From Parcubacteria group bacterium Gr01-1014_8 (GTDB lineage: Bacteria > Patescibacteriota > Minisyncoccia > Phycocordibacterales > UBA2100): DNA of 64,000 nt. The position numbers were made by a program, and so were the translations under genes. The notes below the pieces were generated by a model. The model did not search any database and had not been told where the DNA came from. It worked only from the letters and a program-made list of their open reading frames with translations. Shown one piece after another: positions 47,587 through 59,980 of the stretch (position 1 is its first letter; each line of letters opens with the position of its first letter). Location of the stretch: the NCBI GenBank assembly GCA_007376385.1, contig VMGC01000003.1:1-64000 (forward strand). The letters are read 5' to 3'.

Positions 47587-47997
47587 CTAGTACCGCAATT
47601 CGACGGAACGCTGAAGCGCACGAGCACTCGTCCCAATAGAAGCACAGCTAGTGCTGTATCCGTCCGAGTGAATAGTGGTCCGAGGATAAAAGTTTCGTTT
47701 CGTTACAACTACTCTCACGCAGCGCCCGTTTGGTTCGAATTCGTACGAGAACGTCACCGTCCACGGAGCATACGATGCCTGGCTATAGTACGAGCCTTCG
47801 GCGTAGTAAGAAGACTGGCTGTAGTACGTGCTTTGCGAATAGTATGTTGATTGACTGTAGTATGTACCTTGAGAATAGTACGTCCCCTGCGAATAGTATC
47901 CGCCTTCACCATACGCAGCGTATGCAAAAAAGGGCACCGCGCTCAACAAAAAGACAAGAGCAAACAGAAACTTCTTCTTTTGTTGCGATACGTTCAT
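47587..47997 (-). CDS. secreted tyrosine-rich tandem-repeat protein (YYSQxT hexapeptide repeats)
   Basis: Signal peptide, then (G/S)TYYSQ repeated about 7 times, encoded by an 18 nt tandem DNA repeat. Confidence 0.55.
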   Translation of the reverse strand: MNVSQQKKKFLFALVFLLSAVPFFAYAAYGEGGYYSQGTYYSQGTYYSQSTYYSQSTYYSQSSYYAEGSYYSQASYAPWTVTFSYEFEPNGRCVRVVVTKRNFYPRTTIHSDGYSTSCASIGTSARALQRSVELRY

Positions 47998-48002
47998 GTA
48001 CT

Positions 48003-48314
48003 CTATTGAGCTTGGGTCGTTACGTTAACGGTTTGACCATCGCACGTTATTTGCTCAGGCGGAGATGACGTTGAAAATAGCTCATGACGAATATCCCAAT
48101 AGAGCGCACATTCTGCCCCAGTGTCTGCAGCGTAAAATGCGAATTGCGAATCTCTTCCTATGGAAGAAAGAATGACGCTTTTACGCGCGATGGTTACGAT
48201 AGCCAGTCCCAGCGCGAGTGAAAGCGAGGCGATAAGAGCCGAAAGAAGGAGTGTAAAACCGCGGCTTTTTTCCTTTGGAAATTTCATATCAATATCATTA
48301 CAACGCGCTGCCAT
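48003..48314 (-). CDS. pilin-like / pseudopilin protein
   Basis: KSRGFTLLLSALIASLSLALGLAIV N-terminus is pilin-like but lacks Glu at +5. Confidence 0.5.
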   Translation of the reverse strand: MAARCNDIDMKFPKEKSRGFTLLLSALIASLSLALGLAIVTIARKSVILSSIGRDSQFAFYAADTGAECALYWDIRHELFSTSSPPEQITCDGQTVNVTTQAQ

Positions 48315-49068
48315 CTTCTACCCAGCGGTATAAGTTCTCGGAGATGGTGAACGAACGCGGTTGAAACGAACCGCTACGCCACTGTACAGTCACGCTGACC
48401 CTTATTTCGTCTGGTGCATTTATGAACTTGACATGCGCGGTACGCGTAAAGCGCGTTGCAGTCCATCCCGACAGGCCTCGGCCATACCCATACAAATTAC
48501 CATCTGTCTCTAGCGGTGGACATGTGCCGGATGTACATACGCTTGCGTCCATGTAATTGTCGCGTGTATCTATAACGAACGGGGCATCATTCGGGATGCC
48601 TTCAAGCAAGTCTACAGCTGTGCCCAAAGCGTTCTCTAGTATGTGCCCGTCACGTACGGATCGAACTGATTCAATCGCCTCTTGTGCCAGATGGAACGCC
48701 GTTATCTGATCTCTCGCATAGAAAGCAGTGGCCAGACTTTGCGCGACGAGTCCCATCGGAACCACGATAGCTATTGTGAGGAGCGAGATCGCTACCAACG
48801 TCTCAATGAGCGAGAACCCCGAACTGTCAGATGCTCTTTGCGGATCACGCAATAAAAAAGCCCGCCCCGCCGTTCCTCGCCTCATAGAGGCGAGGTATTC
48901 CGCGGGACGGGACCAGGCTTTTGTTTTGGAATAGGAATCGACCACCGTCGATTCGAGTTTAGTGTGCATCCCCGCAGCAAGCTGCGGGATATTGCACGCC
49001 AATAAAAGACCGGACATCGGTTTTCCTTGACTTGAAGCGCGTGAACCTGGACGCAGATGCTTTATCAT
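48298..49068 (-). CDS. type IV minor pilin (prepilin N-terminal domain)
   Basis: GFSLIETLVAISLLTIAIV class III signal with E+5. Confidence 0.7.
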   Translation of the reverse strand: MIKHLRPGSRASSQGKPMSGLLLACNIPQLAAGMHTKLESTVVDSYSKTKAWSRPAEYLASMRRGTAGRAFLLRDPQRASDSSGFSLIETLVAISLLTIAIVVPMGLVAQSLATAFYARDQITAFHLAQEAIESVRSVRDGHILENALGTAVDLLEGIPNDAPFVIDTRDNYMDASVCTSGTCPPLETDGNLYGYGRGLSGWTATRFTRTAHVKFINAPDEIRVSVTVQWRSGSFQPRSFTISENLYRWVEDGSAL

Positions 49069-49703
49069 AGGTCTAGTATTCGCTGCGCCGCCGTCGCTTG
49101 TATGGAATAGGTAGTCTTTGTTTTTACTTTTGCTGCACCAGCAATGCCTTTCACGACAATAACGACTTTAGGCTGAACAGTATCACCCGGCGTAGTGCCC
49201 ACTACGTAAAACGCCATCTCTTCAATACTGACCTCTTCTGCCGTTATGGGAAATTCTGTTCCCCCTCCATTTTCAGATTTATATATTCGTTTCGTTTCTG
49301 CATCATATCGGTACCTCCACTGGTCATTAACATCACTTGAACTTCCGCCGAAAGGCTCGAACGCGAAGGACGTACCGGGAGTATCCGCGCAATCCTGCGG
49401 GATTGTCTGCGTCCCGCTGCCGCAATGATAGGTACTGCCCATGCGGATAGCGCGCACCATGCCATCAAGGGCTATGTTCAAATTATTCATCACTGATTCG
49501 AGCGCCCGAGCTTTTCTGTTGGCATCAATGAGAGAAACGAGCGCCCCGAGACCAACGAGCATAACGATCGCAAAGAGCCCCACTGAGACGACCATTTCGA
49601 CAAGCGAAAATCCGGGGGAGTGTCCTCCATGGAATACAGAACGCGAGGAATGAGGGTGAATCCCCTTTTTTTCCGTACTCCTTGCCGTTGATCTTGGTTC
49701 CAT
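49065..49703 (-). CDS. type IV minor pilin
   Basis: PGFSLVEMVVSVGLFAIVML prepilin motif. Confidence 0.7.
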   Translation of the reverse strand: MEPRSTARSTEKKGIHPHSSRSVFHGGHSPGFSLVEMVVSVGLFAIVMLVGLGALVSLIDANRKARALESVMNNLNIALDGMVRAIRMGSTYHCGSGTQTIPQDCADTPGTSFAFEPFGGSSSDVNDQWRYRYDAETKRIYKSENGGGTEFPITAEEVSIEEMAFYVVGTTPGDTVQPKVVIVVKGIAGAAKVKTKTTYSIQATAAQRILDL

Positions 49704-49704
49704 A

Positions 49705-50385
49705 CTATCGTACTGAGATCTGCCCTGTCGCTTCGACGATGATCGACTTCGTATCTCCTCGAGGTGAACGAACGACTATCCGCGCGTTCTGCTGACAATT
49801 CGCGAGTGAGAGAAGACACGAGAGATCATTCGCACTTATAAGCGCATCCGGTTCCGGTCGTCTAAAGAGAATATCCAACTTCGAGACCGCCGTACATGTG
49901 CTTGCGTCCGCACCTGCGGGTACGCAAAGCCTGCCGACCGAAAATCCACCTGCAAGCGTCGATGCTTGCTGCAGCTCGCACGTCGCTGAAGAACTGGAAT
50001 CAGGACAATCATACAAACCATTCTCGATGACCGCGTCCGCAAAGATCTGGTAGGACGTAGGGTCAGAACTCGCGAAATGCATTCCATAGGATGCCCCGAA
50101 ATTACCGGCGCCGAAGCGCTGCACGGCGATGCCATAGACTTGCGTCTGGCTTACGGAGAGGGCGACATCATACGTCAAATTTTCCAACGTTATTGCCGCC
50201 CCGAATTTTGAATAATTTGCCAGGAGAATTGATGAAATGATCACAAAGATTGCCGTAACAACCATGAGCTCGATCAGCGTGTATCCTCCATCAGAAGATG
50301 CTTCCGCCGCGTCAGAACCTTTTTTTGAACGCGTTCGTTCACTTCCCCGCACAACGCTTCCTACGGAAGAAAAGGAATGGATATG
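49705..50385 (-). CDS. type IV minor pilin (start uncertain)
   Basis: GYTLIELMVVTAIFVIISSILLA prepilin motif. The annotated 365 aa ORF overlaps pilD in another frame, so a later GTG/ATG start is assumed. Confidence 0.6.
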   Translation of the reverse strand, partial: HIHSFSSVGSVVRGSERTRSKKGSDAAEASSDGGYTLIELMVVTAIFVIISSILLANYSKFGAAITLENLTYDVALSVSQTQVYGIAVQRFGAGNFGASYGMHFASSDPTSYQIFADAVIENGLYDCPDSSSSATCELQQASTLAGGFSVGRLCVPAGADASTCTAVSKLDILFRRPEPDALISANDLSCLLSLANCQQNARIVVRSPRGDTKSIIVEATGQISVR

Positions 50386-51170
50386 CCGTATACGTTCAAT
50401 TGCCATACTAGTATGCAGCTTGCGATGAGAAAGGGACCAAAGGGAACCTCGCTCTCCATTGTAAAGCGCGGAGCGCCCCTGCTCAATGGAGTTATCCCAA
50501 TCTTCTCCGCATACGCAAGAAGCACAGGAAGCGGGAGTAAGATACAGACACTTACGACGGCACCGATAATGAACGCACATAGTATGGCAAAAGGACCCGC
50601 GATGGGTCCTAAAAGAAAACCAATAGTAAATGCAAGTTTTACGTCGCCGAGTCCCATCCATTTGCCTCTCGACACAAGCCACAGCGAAAAAAGCGGCGTT
50701 GCAGTGGCAAGAGCGCCAAGAACTACGTATGTAATTTGGGACGCCTCTTCCATCGCAAGGAGGCCATACACAAATGCGACTACGCCCGCTGCATAGCTCC
50801 ACACATCAGGAATAACTGTGTGGTATATATCGTACACAGTGATCGCTACAAAGAGTGCCATGATGAGCACTCCTAAGATCTTTAATTCGATAGGAAGCGG
50901 GGAAAGACCCACCAGAACAAAAAGTAGCGCCGTTCCTATTTCAACCAGTGGATATTGCAAAGATATGCGATTCTTGCAATAGCGACATGCGCCCCCTAAG
51001 TAGACAAAAGAAAACACGGGTACGAGATCGACAACCTTGAGTACCGTCCGACACGAAGGACATGCGCTTCTTCCCATCAAATCCCGCTTCCCTTCTCGCA
51101 GGATAAGCACATTCACAAAACTCCCAATGATCAACCCAGATGCGCCAAAGAGGAATGCTTCGAGGACCAC
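50361..51170 (-). CDS. pilD: prepilin peptidase (A24 family)
   Basis: N-terminal CxxC...CxxC zinc motif, 6 to 8 TM helices, catalytic Asp context. Confidence 0.85.
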   Translation of the reverse strand: MVLEAFLFGASGLIIGSFVNVLILREGKRDLMGRSACPSCRTVLKVVDLVPVFSFVYLGGACRYCKNRISLQYPLVEIGTALLFVLVGLSPLPIELKILGVLIMALFVAITVYDIYHTVIPDVWSYAAGVVAFVYGLLAMEEASQITYVVLGALATATPLFSLWLVSRGKWMGLGDVKLAFTIGFLLGPIAGPFAILCAFIIGAVVSVCILLPLPVLLAYAEKIGITPLSRGAPRFTMESEVPFGPFLIASCILVWQLNVYGISIPFLP

Positions 51171-51246
51171 AGGGAAAAGAATAGCACAACGCCCCCTCCT
51201 TGGGGGCGTTGTGTATCCGCTCTTTTAGGCGGTAGAAGACTTTCCC

Positions 51247-51756
51247 CTACGGCTTCACGCAATACGACGGATCATCACATGTGGTAGCGCCACCTGCGAG
51301 CCCCGCCCAAAGTCCGTCAACGTCACCGAGTGGAACCGCGCTAGCGCCTCCTTCGATAACTGATTTAATGACGTAGCTAGAGCACGGCACTGCCGTACAT
51401 GCTGCACCTGCCCCGTCGGCAGAAGCATACGAGTACACGTACGAACCACTGTTCGTCGGGTCACTTGATATCTGTGAGATGAACTGCTCTGTGACAAGAG
51501 CCCCAAGTCCGCTGGCAGCACCCATGTCTGTTGTGCCAGACACACCACCCGCAACAACTGCTGGGTATGATTGGTGCGCATCGTAGTACAACTCAAGCGC
51601 TAACTGCATTTGCTTCATGTCCGCGATGCGGCGTGCATCACGTCCCTTCTTTCGCGCGCTGTTCAAGGACGCAAGAACGACGGACGAAAGAATACCGATG
51701 ATGGCGATAACCACCAATAGTTCAATGAGAGTGAAGCCTCTCGATGTTCGATTCAT
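51247..51756 (-). CDS. pilA: type IV major pilin (PilA-like)
   Basis: RGFTLIELLVVIAIIGILSSVVLASL. Start is probably the internal Met before the leader. Confidence 0.8.
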   Translation of the reverse strand: MNRTSRGFTLIELLVVIAIIGILSSVVLASLNSARKKGRDARRIADMKQMQLALELYYDAHQSYPAVVAGGVSGTTDMGAASGLGALVTEQFISQISSDPTNSGSYVYSYASADGAGAACTAVPCSSYVIKSVIEGGASAVPLGDVDGLWAGLAGGATTCDDPSYCVKP

Positions 51757-51791
51757 AAAATAAGATTTATTACTAATGTTACTAATAATGG

Positions 51792-52265
51792 CTAATTGCA
51801 ACCGGATCGAACGCTTCCGTTTGCATCAACGTATACCATTCCAGGGGTCGTCCGGGGCCCCGTTCCGACTTCCAGATATGCACACGCTTGCCAATTCTGG
51901 GTAGTCGCCCCCCCTGTTGAGAGATCCGCCTGCGTACCGATGGCATAATCGCATGCACTGCCCGATCCTTCAGTGCAGGCGGTGGTGGAGCCGGAGGGAT
52001 CTTTATATGCCGACAGATCTGGCGTCGTACACGTGCTGACTCGAGCTGCCCCTGATGTGCAACCTACAAAGGTCGTAGCAGCTCCACCCGTATCAGCAAT
52101 GGCAACTGCGTTGCCTATTTGGCGAAGATCCTCTACGCGGCGCGTATCGCGGCCTTTTTTACGAGCATTATTCAAGGACGCCAAAATGACCGAGGACAAG
52201 AGCCCAATAACCGCAATAACCACCAATAGTTCAATGAGAGTGAAGCCTCTGTTTTTTTCTTGCAT
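51792..52265 (-). CDS. pilA: type IV major pilin paralog (PilA-like)
   Basis: MQEKNRGFTLIELLVVIAVIGLLSSVILASL. Confidence 0.8.
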   Translation of the reverse strand: MQEKNRGFTLIELLVVIAVIGLLSSVILASLNNARKKGRDTRRVEDLRQIGNAVAIADTGGAATTFVGCTSGAARVSTCTTPDLSAYKDPSGSTTACTEGSGSACDYAIGTQADLSTGGATTQNWQACAYLEVGTGPRTTPGMVYVDANGSVRSGCN

Positions 52266-52365: not shown

Positions 52366-53574
52366 CTAGAGACCCGACGCAATGTTGTAGATAGGAACAA
52401 GAACAGCCGCGAGCAGTATTGCAACCCCAAGGGCGAGCCCTACGATCATCACCGGCTCGATAAGAGAAACAAGAGTATCTATTGCATTATTGACTTCCCG
52501 CCGATAGTAACGCGACATCGTGTCCAGAATATTGCCCATATTGCCGGTCTCCTCTCCTATCTTCATCATCGCGACGATGATACCCGGAACTTCCGGATGT
52601 TTGCGGAATGCTTCGGATACGGGGAGTCCCGCCTTCACATCGGTAGCAACTTCTGTTAATACTTTTTCATAGGTGACATCGCCCACAACGCTTGCAGTGA
52701 TCTCAAGCCCGCGCAGCATTTGAATGCCACTTTTTAACATTGTTGCGAGGTTGTCGGACATGCGGGAGAGGTAAAGCTTTCGATAAATGACGCCAATGAT
52801 CGGCATCTGCAATCTTGCTCGCGAGAGAAAAAGCATGCCGTTCTCGCTCTTGCCATATCGGAATATGAAAACGCCGCTAATAACAAGAAGGACCCCCAAG
52901 AGTAATATGTAGTTTGATAGAAATGTGCTTATGCCTATGACTATTCTTGTGTAAATAGGCACGGCCTGTCCTACCTCCTCAAGCATCAGCGCGAGACGCG
53001 GTATGACAAGAGTGAGCATAAGGATCATAACAACCACGAACGTAAGCAGAATGAACGCTGGATAGACGAGCGCATTTTTCGCTTTTTGCGTGATCTCATA
53101 GTTTCTGTCGAGGTACTCCGCAAGAAATGCGAACGTCTCGTCTAATTTACCCGTTTCCTCGCCGGCGCGAACCATGTTCACATAGAACGGCGAGAACACA
53201 TCTGGCTGACGCGAAAGAGCAGCCGCTATAGAGCTTCCACTTTGAATGTCATTCGCGACTTCAGTGAGTTTTTCGGCAAGCTTCGGTGTTCTCGCCTCAG
53301 CTGCTAGCAATCTGAATGCGCGAAGCGCAGATACCTGTGCTTCGAAAAGCGTGGTTATCTGGCGCGACACCATCACAAGATCGGAACTCTTTATCCTGTC
53401 AAATATCGCAACACGCGAAGTGAACGATTGCTTGATCTCAACCGGTTCTATGGAAGAGATGATCAAGCCTCTTCTCTGTATTGCGGTGATCGCAAGGTCT
53501 ATGTTCACCGCATCAATGGTGCCAGTGCGCTCTGTCCCGGTTTGATCAAGTGCTTTGTAAGAAAAAATTGCCAT
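52366..53574 (-). CDS. pilC: type IV pilus platform protein PilC (GspF family)
   Basis: Two T2SSF repeats, 3 TM helices, 402 aa. Confidence 0.9.
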   Translation of the reverse strand: MAIFSYKALDQTGTERTGTIDAVNIDLAITAIQRRGLIISSIEPVEIKQSFTSRVAIFDRIKSSDLVMVSRQITTLFEAQVSALRAFRLLAAEARTPKLAEKLTEVANDIQSGSSIAAALSRQPDVFSPFYVNMVRAGEETGKLDETFAFLAEYLDRNYEITQKAKNALVYPAFILLTFVVVMILMLTLVIPRLALMLEEVGQAVPIYTRIVIGISTFLSNYILLLGVLLVISGVFIFRYGKSENGMLFLSRARLQMPIIGVIYRKLYLSRMSDNLATMLKSGIQMLRGLEITASVVGDVTYEKVLTEVATDVKAGLPVSEAFRKHPEVPGIIVAMMKIGEETGNMGNILDTMSRYYRREVNNAIDTLVSLIEPVMIVGLALGVAILLAAVLVPIYNIASGL

Positions 53575-53595
53575 GAAAACAGAATATCGAGCTGT

Positions 53596-54657
53596 CTACA
53601 ACAACTTTTGCAACACATTCGGGTTTAGAGAATACTGGTACGCGCTTTCCACCGATATCTCCCCCTTCCCTACAAGTTCAGCGAGGGAACGGTTCATGTC
53701 TATCATTCCTTCAGTCGAGGATGTTTCAATGACCGTATTTATCTCATGAGTTCTCTTTTCGCGAATGAGGTTCGCGACCGCTTTATTATTTATAAGAAGT
53801 TCGTATGCCGGGATCAATCCGCCTGATATGCGCGGGATGAGACGTTGTGAGAAGATCCCGGCGAGAGACGCCGCAAGCTGAAGGCGTATTTGGTCTTGCT
53901 GGTTCGCAGGGAAAGTGTCAATGATACGGTCGATGGTCTGCGCGGCATTGTTCGTATGAAGCGTCGAAAAGACCAGATGACCGGTTTCAGCCGCTGTAAC
54001 AGCAGCGGCCATCGTCTCTGGTCCTCGCATTTCCCCTACCAAGAGAACGTCAACGTCCTCTCGGAACGCAGATAGAAGCGCGGAAGCGAAGTCTTTTGTG
54101 TCAATGCCAACCTCTCTCTGATCTATCAATGATTGTTTCGGAGTGTGCACATATTCTATCGGGTCTTCCACCGTGACGATATGTTCCATACGCTCCGTAT
54201 TGATGAGTTCGATCAAAGACGCAAGCGTCGTCGTCTTTCCTTGCCCCACCGGGCCTACCACCAAAAAGAATCCTTGTGATTTTCGCGCGAACGACTCCAA
54301 CACGTCGGGGAGATTCAATTCTTGCACGGAACGTATCGTCTTAGGGATAAGCCTCAGAGCGATGCCGACGGCACCGCGCTGAAAGAACGCATTACCTCTG
54401 AAACGGGTACCGTCCTCAGTCTGATACGCAAAATCTACTTCCTTGGTATCAAAGAATCGTTTCTGTTGTTCCGGTGTCAGGAGCGCTTTCGCGAACCCAA
54501 GCGTATCTTCCGGAGTTAGAACTGGTTCTTTCAACATTGGCGAGAGCGAGCCCGCTACGCGTATGGTGGGATGTGCTTCTGTTGAAAAATGAAGGTCAGA
54601 TGCACCTTCATGTATGACCACATTAATATACTTTGCCAGTGTTTGAGGATAATCCAT
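53596..54657 (-). CDS. pilT: type IV pilus retraction ATPase PilT
   Basis: GPVGQGKTTT Walker A, Asp box, His box, 353 aa (no N-terminal GspE domain). Confidence 0.85.
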   Translation of the reverse strand: MDYPQTLAKYINVVIHEGASDLHFSTEAHPTIRVAGSLSPMLKEPVLTPEDTLGFAKALLTPEQQKRFFDTKEVDFAYQTEDGTRFRGNAFFQRGAVGIALRLIPKTIRSVQELNLPDVLESFARKSQGFFLVVGPVGQGKTTTLASLIELINTERMEHIVTVEDPIEYVHTPKQSLIDQREVGIDTKDFASALLSAFREDVDVLLVGEMRGPETMAAAVTAAETGHLVFSTLHTNNAAQTIDRIIDTFPANQQDQIRLQLAASLAGIFSQRLIPRISGGLIPAYELLINNKAVANLIREKRTHEINTVIETSSTEGMIDMNRSLAELVGKGEISVESAYQYSLNPNVLQKLL

Positions 54658-54801
54658 ATGAAATCCCTAAGAGGAAAGCGAGTGTGTTGCTCCCTTCTCC
54701 CGACTCATGCACGCTACACACGACATTGTAACCTATTTTTTGTACGCACATGAGGAACTGTGTGAAGAAGTGGGATTTCTGTTTATACCTCTAGCGAGTC
54801 C

Positions 54802-54904
54802 GGGTGCCGGATGCGGTTTGTAGGGACCCCGCAGCCGACAGACGAGGACTCGAGGATTTTTCTAGAAAGAAAAATCCGTGCCCGGAAAACCGCATCCGGC
54901 ACCC
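54802..54904. repeat. 103 bp nested inverted-repeat element between the REC-domain gene and pilT
   Basis: Outer 18 bp perfect inverted repeat GGGTGCCGGATGCGGTTT...AAACCGCATCCGGCACCC. Inner 10 bp palindrome GGATTTTTCTagaAAGAAAAATCC. Confidence 0.6.
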
Positions 54905-54913
54905 TGCGAGCGT

Positions 54914-55360
54914 CTATTTCTTTCCTATGGCCTCCATCGTCATCGTGACCACCTCCGAAGGTATCATGCTTGCCTTAACGACATACTTATCGACACCAAG
55001 CTTTTCCGCCTGCACTTTGTCACCATCATTGCTCTGATTCGTGAGGGCTATTGTTTTTGCACCCTCCGCTAATTTCTCTTCTTTGACTCTACTCAAGAAA
55101 CTAAATCCATCGTCCCCTGGCATGACAATATCGAAAAGAATAGCCGCAGGCTTAAGACCTCCTCGAAGCACCGTGAGAGCGTCCGCTGTAGACTGGCATG
55201 CCTCAACCGCAAATCCCTTCTGCATGAACTTCATACTGTACATATCAAGAAGGAAGTGGTCGTCATCGACTAGCAGGATGGTTCCATTCTGCCCCGGGGA
55301 GGACGCGGGCATAGATGGCTTTTGCGGCCCACTCGCGCTATTTTGTTTTTCTTCAGCCAT
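54914..55360 (-). CDS. CheY-like response regulator receiver (stand-alone REC) in the pilus locus
   Basis: ILLVDDDHFLLDM...DIVMPGDDGF, phospho-acceptor Asp and conserved Lys context. Confidence 0.8.
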   Translation of the reverse strand: MAEEKQNSASGPQKPSMPASSPGQNGTILLVDDDHFLLDMYSMKFMQKGFAVEACQSTADALTVLRGGLKPAAILFDIVMPGDDGFSFLSRVKEEKLAEGAKTIALTNQSNDGDKVQAEKLGVDKYVVKASMIPSEVVTMTMEAIGKK

Positions 55361-55377
55361 ACAGGATCATTTCTCTT

Positions 55378-57123
55378 TTAAACATCTGTAGTCTCTGTTT
55401 CAGTTTTTGCTGCAACCTCCTTCTCGGTTTCATCTGCCAAAAGCAAGGTACTCAAGGAATCAATCTCAGAATAAGGAACCATTTTTGCGAACGACTTCAG
55501 CATAGCATCCTCTCTCATCGTGAGCATTCCCTGCGCGCGAGACACCCGCCACAATTCCGACTCGACGGGATTCTTTAGGACAATATGCTCGATGTCCGAC
55601 CCCATTTCCATGACCTCAAAGACTGCCATTCTTCCCTTTAATCCTGTCATGCAGCCGGGTGATTTCTCCGGTTCAAATATTGTGTCCGGTACCTTGAATC
55701 GGTATTTTTCCGGAAGACTTGAAAGCTGCTCTTCGATGTTCTTTCTGATAGATGGCGTCATGGGGACTTCCTTCCCTGTCCCTGCACAGAGTGTGCGCAC
55801 AAGCCGCTGGGCAACCGAAGCGATGAGAACAGGCGGAATAAGGTAGGGTTCCACGCCCATATCGATGAGCCTCGGAATCGTCCCAACTGCATCGTTCGTG
55901 TGGATGGTCGAGAGCACCAAGTGACCCGTAAGCGCCGCCTGCACGGCAAGTTTTGCCGTTTCTGCATCGCGGATCTCACCCACCATGATGATATCGGGGT
56001 CTTGTCGGAGTGTCGTACGAAGGCCAGTCGCGAAGGTGTATCCTATCTCAGGCCTGACTTGTGATTGCGTAATACCTTCCACGTAATACTCGATCGGATC
56101 TTCGAGTGAAAGCACGTTCTTATGTTCCCTGTCCAGCTCTGATAGCATTGAATACAACGTCGTCGATTTACCGCTTCCCGTGGGACCCGAGATGAGTACC
56201 AAGCCGTGCGGCTGTTTTATCGCGTTGCGTAACAATTTCAGATTTCTCTCCGAGAGTCCGATTGAATCGAGGGGAATAAATCCCTTATCACGGTCAAGGA
56301 TCCGAACAACAACCTTCTCACCATTGGATGAAGGAAATGTGGAAACACGAAAGTCTATCTGCCTTTGCTCAATAGAAGCAGAAAAACGTCCATCCTGTGG
56401 TTTTCGTTGTTCATCGAGCCGTATTGAGGCCAAAACCTTGATACGTGCGACAAGCGCTCGATGAGTATTTGCCGGCAGAATAACACTCGTATGAAGATCT
56501 CCATCCACTCGGTAACGAACGCGAACTCCCGTCGGTGTCGGTTCGATGTGGATGTCGGACGCATTACCATCAATGGCATACCTAAGGATAGTGGACACTA
56601 TCTTTATCGTCGGCGCATCCTCCTGAATGACTTGTGTCGGCCCCTCTTTCGGCTTTGCGTTCCCAAGGTCCAATAGCGCTTGATCCAATTCATCCGTCGG
56701 CGGCCGCGTGTCTGATTCAGTTTGCAAGTCAGACACCGCTTGGTCCACGTCACCACCGAGAACGCGATACATTGCAATGACCTTCTTGAGATCCTCTTCT
56801 GATATTCGGAACACTTTGAAAGGAACGCCGGTCTTTCGTGCGATGAAGTTCAACGCGTCGATGCCTTCGATATCATCCGGATCAACCATGCCGACTTCCA
56901 AGACTCCTTCTTCAAGAGAAACGGGGGCAAAACGATAGTGCTCCGCCGCTTCTTGCGGAATGAACTTCAACACTTCGTACGGGATTTTGGTGTCTCCGAG
57001 AGCCTTTGAAGGAATATCAACAGATATATCCCCCGCGGCTCCTGGGGAAAAGTTGCTCGGTACCGGATTTGTTACTATCGGCTGGATTATGGTCATACTA
57101 CGTTCATCAACGTCACGCTGCAC
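55378..57123 (-). CDS. pilB: type IV pilus assembly ATPase PilB (GspE family)
   Basis: N-terminal GSPII_E_N domain, Walker A GPTGSGKSTT, tetracysteine-like region. Confidence 0.9.
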   Translation of the reverse strand: MQRDVDERSMTIIQPIVTNPVPSNFSPGAAGDISVDIPSKALGDTKIPYEVLKFIPQEAAEHYRFAPVSLEEGVLEVGMVDPDDIEGIDALNFIARKTGVPFKVFRISEEDLKKVIAMYRVLGGDVDQAVSDLQTESDTRPPTDELDQALLDLGNAKPKEGPTQVIQEDAPTIKIVSTILRYAIDGNASDIHIEPTPTGVRVRYRVDGDLHTSVILPANTHRALVARIKVLASIRLDEQRKPQDGRFSASIEQRQIDFRVSTFPSSNGEKVVVRILDRDKGFIPLDSIGLSERNLKLLRNAIKQPHGLVLISGPTGSGKSTTLYSMLSELDREHKNVLSLEDPIEYYVEGITQSQVRPEIGYTFATGLRTTLRQDPDIIMVGEIRDAETAKLAVQAALTGHLVLSTIHTNDAVGTIPRLIDMGVEPYLIPPVLIASVAQRLVRTLCAGTGKEVPMTPSIRKNIEEQLSSLPEKYRFKVPDTIFEPEKSPGCMTGLKGRMAVFEVMEMGSDIEHIVLKNPVESELWRVSRAQGMLTMREDAMLKSFAKMVPYSEIDSLSTLLLADETEKEVAAKTETETTDV

Positions 57124-57222
57124 GCAAAAAACATGTATATCAGTGCTTCCCAGTATACCGCGCTTCGCTCGCTGTCACATTTCAACACTCAAGAACATCG
57201 AGACGGTCCCCTTCAAAAGCGG

Positions 57223-57585
57223 CTATCGGCGAGGCGACGTGCTTGTGGCCTGCTTTCCCTGTCCTGCATTGAGAGGAGCGAACGGATTCAAGCGTCCGAC
57301 TGGTTCAGGTATGATTTGACTCCCAAAATCCTGCAGCGTTTGGAAGGCAGGGTCTGAAAAAATGCTTCCCTCCAGAGCAACTGCACGTAGTTGAAGGAGT
57401 GTGGCAACGAGGTCTTTGTCAGACGCGGTGCCGGCCGTTGTAAAGTCTTCTGTTACCAACAGATCCGGCGAGCTCGAATCACCGCTGAGTCCAAACCACG
57501 CTCCCACGCCCACTATTATGGCGAGGCCGCCGATGACAATTTTGTTTCTAACTATCATTTCAAACATATTCATTATTTTAGCCAA
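57223..57585 (-). CDS. hypothetical pilus-associated membrane protein (PilP-like position)
   Basis: 120 aa with an N-terminal TM helix. Located between pilO and pilB. Confidence 0.3.
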   Translation of the reverse strand: MAKIMNMFEMIVRNKIVIGGLAIIVGVGAWFGLSGDSSSPDLLVTEDFTTAGTASDKDLVATLLQLRAVALEGSIFSDPAFQTLQDFGSQIIPEPVGRLNPFAPLNAGQGKQATSTSPRR

Positions 57586-58136
57586 TACGTCCTCACCGTT
57601 ACGTCGTAGCGATACGTCGGATTGACCTGGGTCTGCTGCCCCTCAGCATTCATCGAGAGTGACACGAGATCAACGATGCGCAAACTTTTCTCCAATTCTT
57701 CCATGAATTGCACAAAGCTTTCGTACGAGCCGGAAGTCGTGAATTTGAATGTTAGGGAGTCAAAGGCGCGATTGCCGCCGCCTATCACGCCGCTCACGGT
57801 TTTTGTAGCTTCTGCTGGCGTGCCAATGACGACATTCTGGAGTCCGAGCCCGAATCTGCTTGCGATATTGTCGAGGTCCAGAACGAGTCGCACATTGTCA
57901 ACGTGATCCGGCAGCAATTTATGCAAGCGTTCTATGTCTTGCGGATCAAACGCATTGTAACGGGAGAGGAGAGATTGTTTTAATCGCTGCAATTCTCCCG
58001 CCTTGTCCAAGGCCTGGTTATATTCAGTTATTTGCGCTTGCAGGACACGGGTTTGATCGTACGTCGGTTTCGTATAAAAAAAGAAGATCGCAACGGACAT
58101 TGCAAGTCCCGCAATAGCTATAATGGTACGTGACAT
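57573..58136 (-). CDS. pilO: PilO-like pilus assembly protein
   Basis: N-terminal TM, coiled coil, C-terminal ferredoxin-like region. Gene order pilM-N-O. Confidence 0.5.
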   Translation of the reverse strand: MSRTIIAIAGLAMSVAIFFFYTKPTYDQTRVLQAQITEYNQALDKAGELQRLKQSLLSRYNAFDPQDIERLHKLLPDHVDNVRLVLDLDNIASRFGLGLQNVVIGTPAEATKTVSGVIGGGNRAFDSLTFKFTTSGSYESFVQFMEELEKSLRIVDLVSLSMNAEGQQTQVNPTYRYDVTVRTYWLK

Positions 58137-58141
58137 ATATC

Positions 58142-58819
58142 TTATTGCGCGTCGGTACTCTCCGGTAGTCCTTCAGGAGGAAGCGGGAGAGCGCCGGTTG
58201 GTTGTTGTTGCTCTTGCACCTCCGGAGCTGCTACTGCGCCAAATTGGCCATACCGCAAGGCTGAAGGGTTTACGAGTGCCCCAAGGTCAAAGTGTACGCC
58301 GTCTATTTGCCTATTGATGTTAGAAAATATGGGACTTGCGATGGCGCCGCTTTTGCTGAGGTAATCCGCCTGCAAGGCTATCGAGTTTACACTCATGGCG
58401 ATACCTCGCATTTTTACGTTCATGTTATGCGCATCGACTGCTTGAAAATCAAGATTGGTGAACGCAACTGTCTGAAGCGTCAGTTGCTCAAGCAAATGGA
58501 AAAAGATGGAAGGTGCGATGTGTTCAGAGAGCACCTGGTCGGCTGCACTCATGCGGTCGTCCAAACGCGTTAATTCCTGGATGAGCGCCGGTTCAAACGC
58601 AGCCTTTGCTCTCTCGAGTTGTTCAAGCTTGCTTGAAGTGGAGGTCTTCAAAAATTGTTCATAGAGAAACACTCCGACCGCCAAAGCGACAGACGCCACG
58701 AGCAGTACTATCGCGATGAGGACAAAAAGGTCGGAGAGACCAGGGCCGCGACTATACGATGGCGCAGCCGGAATGGTCGCGTCCCGAGGAATGAATGAAG
58801 ATTTAATGCCGGTTTCCAT
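58142..58819 (-). CDS. pilN: PilN-like pilus assembly protein
   Basis: Single TM then coiled-coil. Immediately downstream of pilM. Confidence 0.55.
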   Translation of the reverse strand: METGIKSSFIPRDATIPAAPSYSRGPGLSDLFVLIAIVLLVASVALAVGVFLYEQFLKTSTSSKLEQLERAKAAFEPALIQELTRLDDRMSAADQVLSEHIAPSIFFHLLEQLTLQTVAFTNLDFQAVDAHNMNVKMRGIAMSVNSIALQADYLSKSGAIASPIFSNINRQIDGVHFDLGALVNPSALRYGQFGAVAAPEVQEQQQPTGALPLPPEGLPESTDAQ

Positions 58820-58828
58820 AAAAACTGT

Positions 58829-59980
58829 TCAGCGGTGCTGCAACTCACGAAGCGCTAACCCCACCGCAACTGCAAACCCTGGACCGATCTCGCGAAGAAC
58901 CTTGTCGAGAAACGCAGGCGTCTCAGTTCTCGCGAACGGATTCGCTATCTCGACTTCTGTTTGCAATAGTTCGTTCGCGTGAGCGGCAAGGCCGGGAAGA
59001 GAAGCTCCGCCACCAGTAAGTATCGCGCGCGATACATTTTTGTTGTATCGCTTCCCGTAGCTCAATAGTACCCGATTCGCTTCCGAAAACACTCGTTCAA
59101 GTGTTGATAACAGAGCAACCTTTATTTTGTCGTTCTCATCAGCTGAAAATGCCGAGGCTTCCACAAGGCCATGTTCCCTTTTTATCCTCTCCGCCTTTTC
59201 GAAATCCCAGTTCAAGGAACGCGCAAGGTTCTCCGTCATATGCTGCCCCCCGTGTGTTACGAGATGTGTTACCCGCACGATGCCTTTCTCCACCACATAC
59301 ATCTTCGTTGTCGCAGCGCCTAGGTCTATGACAAGAACCGGAGCCATTCCATGGCCAAGAGATGAGCGTATCGCACTGAAGATCTCTATTTCATAGAATT
59401 TTATGGAGAGCCCCGTTTCAGATGCTATGGTCTGATATGCACGTACGGTCTCATTGTGTATCGCAACCAAGAGCACCTCCTGGCCCTTTGATTGCATCGG
59501 TGTTTTTTCGGTTATGCGATCAAATGCGGCTTCCTCAGCCTCATCTTGCGGTATAACGAACCAATCGAGCATAACTTCTGAAGCCGGCAACGGAATATAT
59601 TTGCGAGCCTCGATAGGGATCATTCGTTTTAACTGGTCCGAATCAACTTTTGGCATATCAAGCACCGAGACAAGGCTTGACGAGAATGGAATTGAAAGGC
59701 CCCCAGCGCGTGCTGTCACGTTGGCTTCGCGAATAAGATCGAGAATGGCTTCGGCGGTCTTTTCTGGCGTTAATTTGACGGCCTTCCCAATAGAAACGTC
59801 CCCATACGGTCCGAGGGCTATCTCGCCATATGTCTCAAGGATCGCAGCGCCATGGGCAGGCCGAAGTTGTACTATTTTTGCCGATGAGGCGCCAATATCA
59901 ATACCAAGTACACTTCCTGTTCCCGACTTGAATCCGAGTGAGGCACCTAGTTGCGAGAAGGATGGAAGTGAAAAAGCCAT
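58829..59980 (-). CDS. pilM: type IV pilus assembly protein PilM (actin-like ATPase fold)
   Basis: LGIDIGASSAKIVQL phosphate-1 motif, 383 aa. Confidence 0.8.
   Translation of the reverse strand: MAFSLPSFSQLGASLGFKSGTGSVLGIDIGASSAKIVQLRPAHGAAILETYGEIALGPYGDVSIGKAVKLTPEKTAEAILDLIREANVTARAGGLSIPFSSSLVSVLDMPKVDSDQLKRMIPIEARKYIPLPASEVMLDWFVIPQDEAEEAAFDRITEKTPMQSKGQEVLLVAIHNETVRAYQTIASETGLSIKFYEIEIFSAIRSSLGHGMAPVLVIDLGAATTKMYVVEKGIVRVTHLVTHGGQHMTENLARSLNWDFEKAERIKREHGLVEASAFSADENDKIKVALLSTLERVFSEANRVLLSYGKRYNKNVSRAILTGGGASLPGLAAHANELLQTEVEIANPFARTETPAFLDKVLREIGPGFAVAVGLALRELQHR

Follow-up and report, generated by a model that had tools for sequence, protein, structure and literature searches.

Two adjacent genes of the ultrasmall groundwater bacterium Parcubacteria group bacterium Gr01-1014_8, here called ORF1 and ORF2 (ORF, open reading frame), were found to encode the two halves of a single pilin. 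They lie on the minus strand of a 64-kb stretch of DNA (contig VMGC01000003.1 of assembly GCA_007376385.1, positions 1 to 64,000), which was analysed as a whole and is referred to as the window. Alignment with unsplit relatives showed that ORF1 and ORF2 represent one small minor pilin without the glutamate at position +5 (Glu5), to all appearance split by gene fission. The homology of the halves, the split point, the conservation of the split and the pilus context are established by the comparisons below, and the reading as a whole, that of a two-chain tip-type pilin with a tyrosine-rich tail, seems to us reasonably probable. The two genes and their parts are as follows.

48003..48314, minus strand: ORF1, pilin helix half (103 amino acids; TSC86137.1 in NCBI; stop 5 nucleotides before the ORF2 start)
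47587..47997, minus strand: ORF2, the Tyr-repeat gene, beta-sheet half of the split minor pilin (136 amino acids; ATG start; stop codon 47587-47589; from the ORF listing)
47917..47997, minus strand: predicted ORF2 signal peptide, residues 1-27 (KKK n-region, hydrophobic core, AYA ahead of the predicted cleavage site; read from the sequence)
47764..47916, minus strand: ORF2 Tyr/Ser/Gln/Gly-rich repeat region, residues 28-78 (seven XXYYSQ units and a partial unit)
47590..47763, minus strand: ORF2 beta-sheet 'head' domain, residues 79-136 (matches the C-terminal four strands of the unsplit pilin; both invariant Cys kept)

ORF1 and ORF2 match successive parts of one protein

The strong matches of ORF2 in database searches fell into two classes. 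The first consisted of nine proteins laid out as signal peptide, YY repeats and conserved C-terminus. Proteins of the second class, 150-200 amino acids long, have the same C-terminal ~58 residues behind a prepilin-like N-terminus (RGFTLLLAALVAS...LGRDSQFAFYAADTGAECALYWD) and are without repeats. This N-terminus of the unsplit homologues corresponds to the product of ORF1, directly upstream of ORF2. When both products were compared with the unsplit protein P0010 by BLASTP, ORF1 residues 16-99 aligned with P0010 residues 8-92 (64% identity, E = 4e-36) and ORF2 residues 78-136 with P0010 residues 99-155 (69% identity, E = 4e-27). The two thus match successive parts of P0010 and are colinear halves of a single protein. 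As the alignments show, the split halves together retain the core motifs and each of the four invariant Cys.

ORF1 displays a prepilin-type G/FTLLL motif, in which Leu replaces Glu at +5, a long alpha1 helix, and an alpha-beta loop with hairpin. Its class III (prepilin) leader ends in Gly and is followed by a hydrophobic alpha1 N-terminus; the junction reads ...KSRG/FTLLLSALIASLSLALGLAIV, and its Gly and Phe are nearly invariant among 99 homologues. The Pfam N_methyl family stayed below threshold on ORF1, which is expected given Leu at +5, and a Pfam scan of ORF2 and ORF1 returned zero families at E <= 0.1.

The unsplit family and the predicted fold

A profile search for the unsplit family returned at least 2391 matching proteins of about 150-200 amino acids. 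The organism names on these matches are all Parcubacteria, Paceibacterota, Minisyncoccia or Kaiserbacteria, and some of the proteins are labelled 'Tfp pilus assembly protein PilX' by the Joint Genome Institute (JGI). The unsplit gene of locus L009 likewise comes last in its operon, behind PilD and three further minor pilins. Pfam PilX_N (PF14341) matched 3 of 16 family members with a best E of 0.063, below threshold, and did not match ORF1 itself. PDB chain sequences searched with profiles of both halves gave chance matches only and no pilin.

The AlphaFold2 model of unsplit P0010, built with 99 homologues, had a predicted local distance difference test score (pLDDT) of 92.5 and consisted of a helix (10-69), a loop (70-99) and four strands within residues 100-154 (100-106, 113-119, 126-133 and 148-154). 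As modelled, P0010 is a minimal pilin. Since the split falls in the P0010 loop, ORF1 comprises the helix and the alpha-beta loop, and ORF2 comprises the whole sheet; taken together, they have the long N-terminal helix on a four-stranded antiparallel sheet that is characteristic of the pilin fold. When ORF1 was fused to mature ORF2 and modelled with the family alignment, the pilin refolded with pLDDT 83-97 for helix and sheet, and the C-terminal ORF1 residues 88-101 appeared as strands. The joined model shows, at the level of structure prediction, that the halves are compatible.

Three unsplit homologues (P0150, P0189 and P0196) have Gly-rich inserts of 200-260 amino acids (GGGGxGG... runs) exactly in the loop where ORF1 and ORF2 are split. 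Judged from these inserts, the split loop is an exposed, permissive site and an insertion hot spot of the family.

The split is conserved in other loci

Nine further distinct loci, at 40-65% identity, share the split. Among the proteins retrieved, a set that is not unbiased, there were about 16 split against 136 unsplit forms. A tight pair, with the helix half followed by signal peptide, repeat and head at a spacing of -4 to +5 nucleotides, was found in seven distinct loci, and wherever a locus extended far enough, a helix-half gene stood beside the head gene. The helix halves all end within a few residues of one another, just past '...TC(D/N)GQT(V/I)x(V/I)T...'. The gene ligA follows the split pair in all four loci with long enough contigs (the window, L003, L005 and L007). 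The arrangements observed were the following.

Window, L003/L004, L005, L007, L026, L029/L030, L035: tight split pair, helix half first, gap -4 to +5 nucleotides
L029/L030: in addition to the split pair, a full-length unsplit paralogue directly upstream (L029:440-910, L030:33-323)
L027: repeat-less head gene (P0149) at 337-633, then an uncalled helix-half ORF at 700-996; reversed order, about 60 nucleotides between
L028, 2-663: tandem head genes, the repeat-bearing one first and the repeat-less one (P0158) second
L033: repeat-bearing head gene; contig too short for an upstream gene

The 64-kb window contains no unsplit copy of the pilin. A protein identical to ORF2 is present on two further, independent assemblies, and 13 repeat-bearing split homologues of ORF2 were found in the database searches. 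The identical protein on independent assemblies and the divergent conserved relatives rule out a sequencing or assembly artefact or a frameshift. A frameshift is also ruled out by the relative frame of the paired genes, which differs among loci (gaps of -4, 1, 2, 3 and 5 nucleotides), and by the completeness of the ORF2 signal peptide. Locus L020, which had come up as a split relative in a genome scan, was discarded as a repeat match only.

Phylogeny of the 58-amino-acid head domain did not settle whether the split arose once. Repeated fission had been considered because the split forms P0004, L026 and L035 are close to the unsplit P0109; it was dropped, since the tandem unsplit and split paralogues in L029/L030 allow paralogy or gene conversion. 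The tandem arrangement itself would fit fission after duplication.

The near-identical strains represented by L029 and L030 differ in an ORF2 signal-peptide segment of ~100 nucleotides (L029:1203-1300 against L030:621-720), which is only about 45% identical between them. On both sides of this segment, in the 3' end of the helix half and in the repeats, the DNA is identical, and both versions of the segment are signal-peptide-like. From this comparison, the segment is best described as a locally replaced or hypervariable cassette.

ORF2 is a predicted secreted protein with a tyrosine-rich repeat

Residues 1-27 of ORF2 (MNVSQQKKKFLFALVFLLSAVPFFAYA) show a basic n-region, a hydrophobic core and an A-x-A motif, after which the repeats begin, and the N-terminus is accordingly predicted to be a Sec-type signal peptide. 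As to its origin, a degenerate alpha1 N-terminus taken from a duplicated pilin was considered, but hydrophobic segments are of insufficient length to be compared meaningfully. In the complete ORF2 homologues, the first repeat is immediately preceded by a small residue, which is Ala in all but one. The repeats occupy residues 32-73 (GGYYSQ, GTYYSQ twice, STYYSQ twice, SSYYAE and GSYYSQ) and are followed by a partial ASY; Tyr makes up 31% of the repeat region. The sequence-only reading, which had described a secreted protein with about seven tandem Tyr-rich hexapeptides, is borne out in these respects by the shape of the signal peptide and by seven in-register units. Its estimate of ~40% Tyr plus Ser was inaccurate: the actual content is 30.8% for the precursor, about 36% for the mature protein and 55% for the 51-residue repeat region. 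The same reading had guessed at an organism belonging to the candidate phyla radiation (CPR), in agreement with the Parcubacteria source.

Tandem Repeats Finder (TRF) reported the ORF2 repeat with period 18 (4.3 copies) and with period 36, at a DNA identity of only 69-75%. In the codons of the YYSQ core, identity between units was 80% at positions 1 and 2 and 52% at position 3. This divergence at position 3 indicates that the repeat is maintained as protein and is not a recent product of DNA slippage. Six YYSQ tetrapeptides occur in the six-frame translation of the window, and all of them are inside ORF2. The concern that the stretch might be a non-coding simple repeat is removed by the conservation of the ORF and by the in-frame repeats of its relatives. 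Comparison across these relatives, which had been proposed as a check, revealed ~4-15 units and two head genes without repeats, so that the number of units per head gene lies between 0 and about 15. AlphaFold gave the repeat a pLDDT of 41-57 when ORF1 and mature ORF2 were modelled as joined, and it is thus predicted to be disordered. No gene for a modifying enzyme was noted among the genes beside ORF2.

Related repeats are found on other secreted proteins

YY(S/A/G)(Q/E) arrays were detected in many secreted proteins, a distribution that rests on the matches of full-length-protein searches and on two contig scans. The named genomes among the matches are Adlerbacteria, Paceibacterota, Roizmanbacteria and metagenome-assembled genomes labelled Saccharibacteria; most other matches are metagenome contigs. 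Some arrays directly follow a signal peptide; others separate domains (P0147), lie ahead of a membrane anchor at the C-terminus (P0172, P0182 and P0155), come behind a subtilase domain (P0170) or form the C-terminus of pilins. A word-indexed homology search with the repeat alone gave nothing at E <= 10, probably as a result of composition-bias correction.

Three pilins bear such repeats. P0200 is an orthologue of minor pilin 3 of the window (64% identity over P0200 residues 18-189) with a YYSQ linker and an extra domain of 210 amino acids, P0152 is a homologue of minor pilin 1 that ends in about 90 amino acids of YY repeats, and P0195 is a major-type pilin with YY repeats at its C-terminus. 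An uncharacterised secreted domain (…FVIDHPLDPKNKLL.HSFVESPDVKN.YDG…) is present as three paralogues in tandem at L014:1702-3884, and only the third has a signal peptide and YY repeat. Domains of the L014 type also follow the YY repeats of P0027, P0029, P0031 and P0032, and a Pfam match was obtained in none of them. Because the repeat is present on only one of the three L014 paralogues and recurs on pilins, it is, on the sequences compared, an optional, portable and predicted-disordered module that has recurrently been put on pilus subunits. It is also found between domains, as a spacer, in secreted proteins that are unrelated, and for this reason may be a generic disordered linker and not a dedicated adhesive element.

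P0025, P0155, P0193 and P0202 form a small family, in which a Cys/His-rich motif (HPG.T..DGCHYCRTNC..WG......HCHGG) is followed by YY repeats and mostly by a membrane anchor at the C-terminus; to judge from the four-Cys/His pattern, metal binding is possible. The Ser/Tyr/Gly/Gln composition of the YY repeat recalls self-associating low-complexity domains of eukaryotes. In the full-text literature searches made here, no description of split minor pilins or of this YY repeat was found, and the only relevant item was the cellulose-binding CBM1 motif.

The split pair is located at the end of a pilus cluster

The window has a complete type IV pilus cluster. It is one minus-strand run of genes in the order PilM, PilO, PilB, PilT, PilC, a pair of major-type pilins, PilD and a set of four minor-pilin genes that ends with ORF1; ORF2 comes last. 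ORF1 and ORF2 are thereby accompanied by a prepilin peptidase, ATPases, the platform protein and five other pilin genes. ORF2 is the final gene of the cluster on the minus strand, and ligA, gatC and gatA come after it. The placement of ORF2 immediately upstream of four pilin-like genes in the sequence-only reading was correct as to adjacency, since four minor-pilin-like genes adjoin it, but not as to direction, since it is transcriptionally downstream of them. The other genes of the cluster, all on the minus strand, are listed here.

48298..49068, minus strand: minor pilin 3 (GFSLIETLVA); Pfam N_methyl
49065..49703, minus strand: minor pilin 2 (GFSLVEMVVS); Pfam N_methyl
49705..50352, minus strand: minor pilin 1 (GYTLIELMVV); 215 amino acids by the gene call on an identical contig; Pfam N_methyl
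50361..51170, minus strand: prepilin peptidase PilD; Pfam A24_N_bact, Peptidase_A24
51185-51213, minus strand: strong terminator-like hairpin (stem of 12 bp with 9 G-C pairs; T-run)
51247-51801, minus strand: major-type pilin; Pfam N_methyl
51792-52265, minus strand: major-type pilin; Pfam N_methyl
52366-53574, minus strand: PilC; Pfam (T2SSF, T2SSE, MshEN, PilO and PilM_2 across 52366..59980)
53596-54657, minus strand: PilT-like ATPase; Pfam
55378-57123, minus strand: PilB; Pfam
57573-58136, minus strand: PilO; Pfam
58142-58819, minus strand: gene between PilO and PilM with no assigned product
58829-59980, minus strand: PilM; Pfam

A 365-amino-acid ORF at 49705-50802 (minus strand), which overlaps the PilD gene, was rejected as an artefact of the ORF listing; the gene call starts at 50352. 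The N_methyl matches of the major-type pilins at 51792-52265 and 51247-51801 had E values of 1e-9 and 2e-8, respectively, and the two genes are in tandem with an overlap of 10 nucleotides. The hairpin lies right after the pilin gene at 51247-51801 and before PilD, a position that would be consistent with pilin being expressed at a high level and with the minor-pilin genes receiving only attenuated read-through.

Comparison with known systems

The closest precedent of the ORF1/ORF2 split is the fission of PilA-N and PilA-C in Geobacter sulfurreducens. In Geobacter, GSU1496 and GSU1497 (PilA-N and PilA-C) are the product of pilin fission, the C-half has its own signal peptide, and loss of GSU1497 destabilises PilA (PMC5174107). 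Origin by duplication and degeneration has been proposed for this split pilin (PMC5174107), and a passage of PMC9207759 discusses a hybrid filament of PilA-N and PilA-C. In both systems the split is at the loop after alpha1; the N-gene keeps the prepilin leader and the helix, and the C-gene consists of an antiparallel beta-sheet with its own signal peptide, which in our case is predicted. ORF1 and ORF2 are adjacent, as are the Geobacter genes, which are also co-transcribed. The Parcubacteria pair therefore shows the layout of a split pilin, with adjacent helix and sheet genes colinear with an unsplit protein and a signal peptide, by sequence reading, on the sheet half. The PilA-N/PilA-C filament was reportedly solved by Gu et al. 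in 2021. Unsplit relatives exist in both cases, the gene order is reversed in some Geobacter genomes as it is in L027, and the tandem unsplit paralogue of L029 fits the duplication-degeneration model. The Geobacter protein, however, is the major pilin of a deltaproteobacterium, whereas the pair described here is a Glu5-less minor pilin from a monoderm-type CPR pilus cluster; its alpha-beta loop and hairpin have stayed with the helix half, and its head bears a Tyr-rich repeat tail. The likeness is one of gene layout and description, and we treat the Parcubacteria split as a fission independent of that of Geobacter.

Tip pilins offer a second comparison. GspK and Streptococcus sanguinis PilA are also without Glu at +5 and are placed at the filament tip (PMC9934059), and S. 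sanguinis PilA and GspI have been proposed to nucleate assembly and to present adhesive modules at the tip (PMC9934059). Like S. sanguinis PilA and GspI of the HIJK tip complex, the ORF1/ORF2 pilin is small and encoded with other minor pilins, and it resembles this type in structure and in the absence of Glu5, which S. sanguinis PilA lacks as well. S. sanguinis PilA and GspI differ from it in being single-chain, and the adhesive modules concerned are folded domains on partner pilins and not a low-complexity tail. In the modular pilins PilB and PilC of S. sanguinis, an extra module is grafted on the pilin scaffold and displayed by the pilus (PMC8179133, PMC9934059). P0200, P0152 and P0195 are likewise modular pilins and bear their YY repeats C-terminally on the pilin; the module of the window, in contrast, is a disordered repeat instead of a folded domain and is N-terminal on a separately exported head. 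Similarity to pilins of the PilX/GspK type (PilX_N, COG4726) was seen in the non-acidic +5 residue, a helix motif of the 'AFYAA(D/E)xGxE' type, the position as last minor-pilin gene and the 'PilX' labels given by JGI to several unsplit-family members, although the PilX_N match was below threshold and GspK is a much larger protein.

Proposed mechanism and alternative explanations

In the mechanism that we propose, ORF1 and ORF2 would be translated from one message, with 5 nucleotides separating stop and start. ORF1 would undergo membrane insertion and PilD processing as any pilin does, and the ORF2 head would be exported via Sec with loss of its signal peptide. Outside the cell, the head would dock on ORF1, both at the beta-hairpin and at the C-terminal part of the helix, and the resulting two-chain pilin would join the minor-pilin complex that primes the pilus. 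The Tyr-rich tail of ~50 residues would then project from the split loop at or near the pilus tip, where it could act as a flexible spacer or as a sticky element of low specificity. In this scheme we infer the cleavage of the signal peptide, the reassembly and docking of the halves, the location at the tip, the function of the tail and any adhesive role.

Several points weigh against this two-chain tip pilin. Because the joined model has a covalent link between the halves and draws on an alignment of unsplit homologues, it cannot test association in trans, and the cleavage of the ORF2 signal peptide is a prediction. The tandem head genes of L028 and the head-before-helix order of L027 suggest that the head family has some independence from ORF1. 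Given the unsplit paralogue in L029/L030, the split copy may be accessory and not the working tip pilin, although the window itself is without an unsplit copy.

Some of the same observations would agree with ORF2 being an independent Tyr-rich adhesin or matrix protein, secreted or on the cell surface, that reuses a former pilin beta-domain and never rejoins ORF1 or the pilus: the L027 and L028 arrangements, the unsplit paralogue alongside the split pair in L029/L030, the predicted Sec signal peptide of ORF2 itself and the occurrence of YY repeats on many non-pilin secreted proteins. We consider this unlikely. The ORF2 domain is a bare four-stranded sheet, which is packed on the alpha1 helix in the unsplit model, and the helix-half gene is retained beside the head wherever the contig suffices, with coupling at -4 to +5 nucleotides in seven loci. 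Moreover, Cys and core residues of both halves are conserved as in the unsplit proteins, and the Geobacter halves depend on each other. Of the earlier proposal of a pilus-associated adhesin or matrix protein, the link to the pilus is upheld, as the C-terminal 58 residues are the sheet half of a minor pilin whose helix half is encoded next door, but the anatomy does not suggest an independent adhesin or matrix protein. It is less probable still that the hydrophobic segment of ORF2 remains uncleaved as a membrane anchor, with the Tyr-rich region as a stalk and the head chaperoning or priming ORF1 and the minor-pilin complex while staying out of the fibre. Long or atypical N-termini precede the hydrophobic segment in some homologues (P0007, P0004 and P0145), and the YY repeat is a spacer beside membrane anchors in P0172, P0182, P0155 and P0193. 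The small residue right before the first repeat (Ala in all but one homologue) is nevertheless what signal peptidase I would be expected to require, and between L029 and L030 the hydrophobic segment was wholly replaced, with its signal-peptide character kept and not a conserved anchor sequence.

That ORF1 and ORF2 are a disrupted minor-pilin gene in the course of being lost, with the ORF2 frame a functionless remnant, we find hardly credible. An unsplit paralogue does stand beside the split pair in L029/L030, and split forms are rare in our sample (about 16 against 136 unsplit, in a set that is not unbiased). Yet the split persists across lineages that are only 40-65% identical, with frames, signal peptides, Cys and motifs intact; the ORF2 repeat has been kept despite divergence at synonymous sites; and the window is without an unsplit copy.

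Implications

If the two-chain reading is true, it would represent a second, independent fission of a pilin, and two-chain pilins would be recurrent and not an oddity of Geobacter. Here the fission hits a tip-type minor pilin and would pair a PilD-processed helix with a Sec-exported head, and ORF1 and ORF2 (103 and 109 mature residues) offer a small, testable pair for the addition of a pilin head in trans. The YY repeat, on pilins and on other secreted proteins, is a candidate element for surface interaction or spacing.

The binding target of a pilus is determined by the minor pilins at its tip, and among the means by which episymbiotic CPR bacteria attach to and recognise hosts, type IV pili have the best support (PMC11623550). 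A broader proposal, which we put forward as possible but doubtful, is that CPR bacteria of the Parcubacteria group have a two-chain tip subunit, in which a headless, Glu5-less pilin is capped by a Sec-delivered head. Heads could then be duplicated (L028), exchanged and re-equipped (0 to ~15 units; the signal-peptide cassette of L029 against L030) without disturbing pilus assembly, which would give interchangeable sticky tips for host attachment, and YY(S/A)Q would be an undescribed, CPR-wide extracellular low-complexity module.
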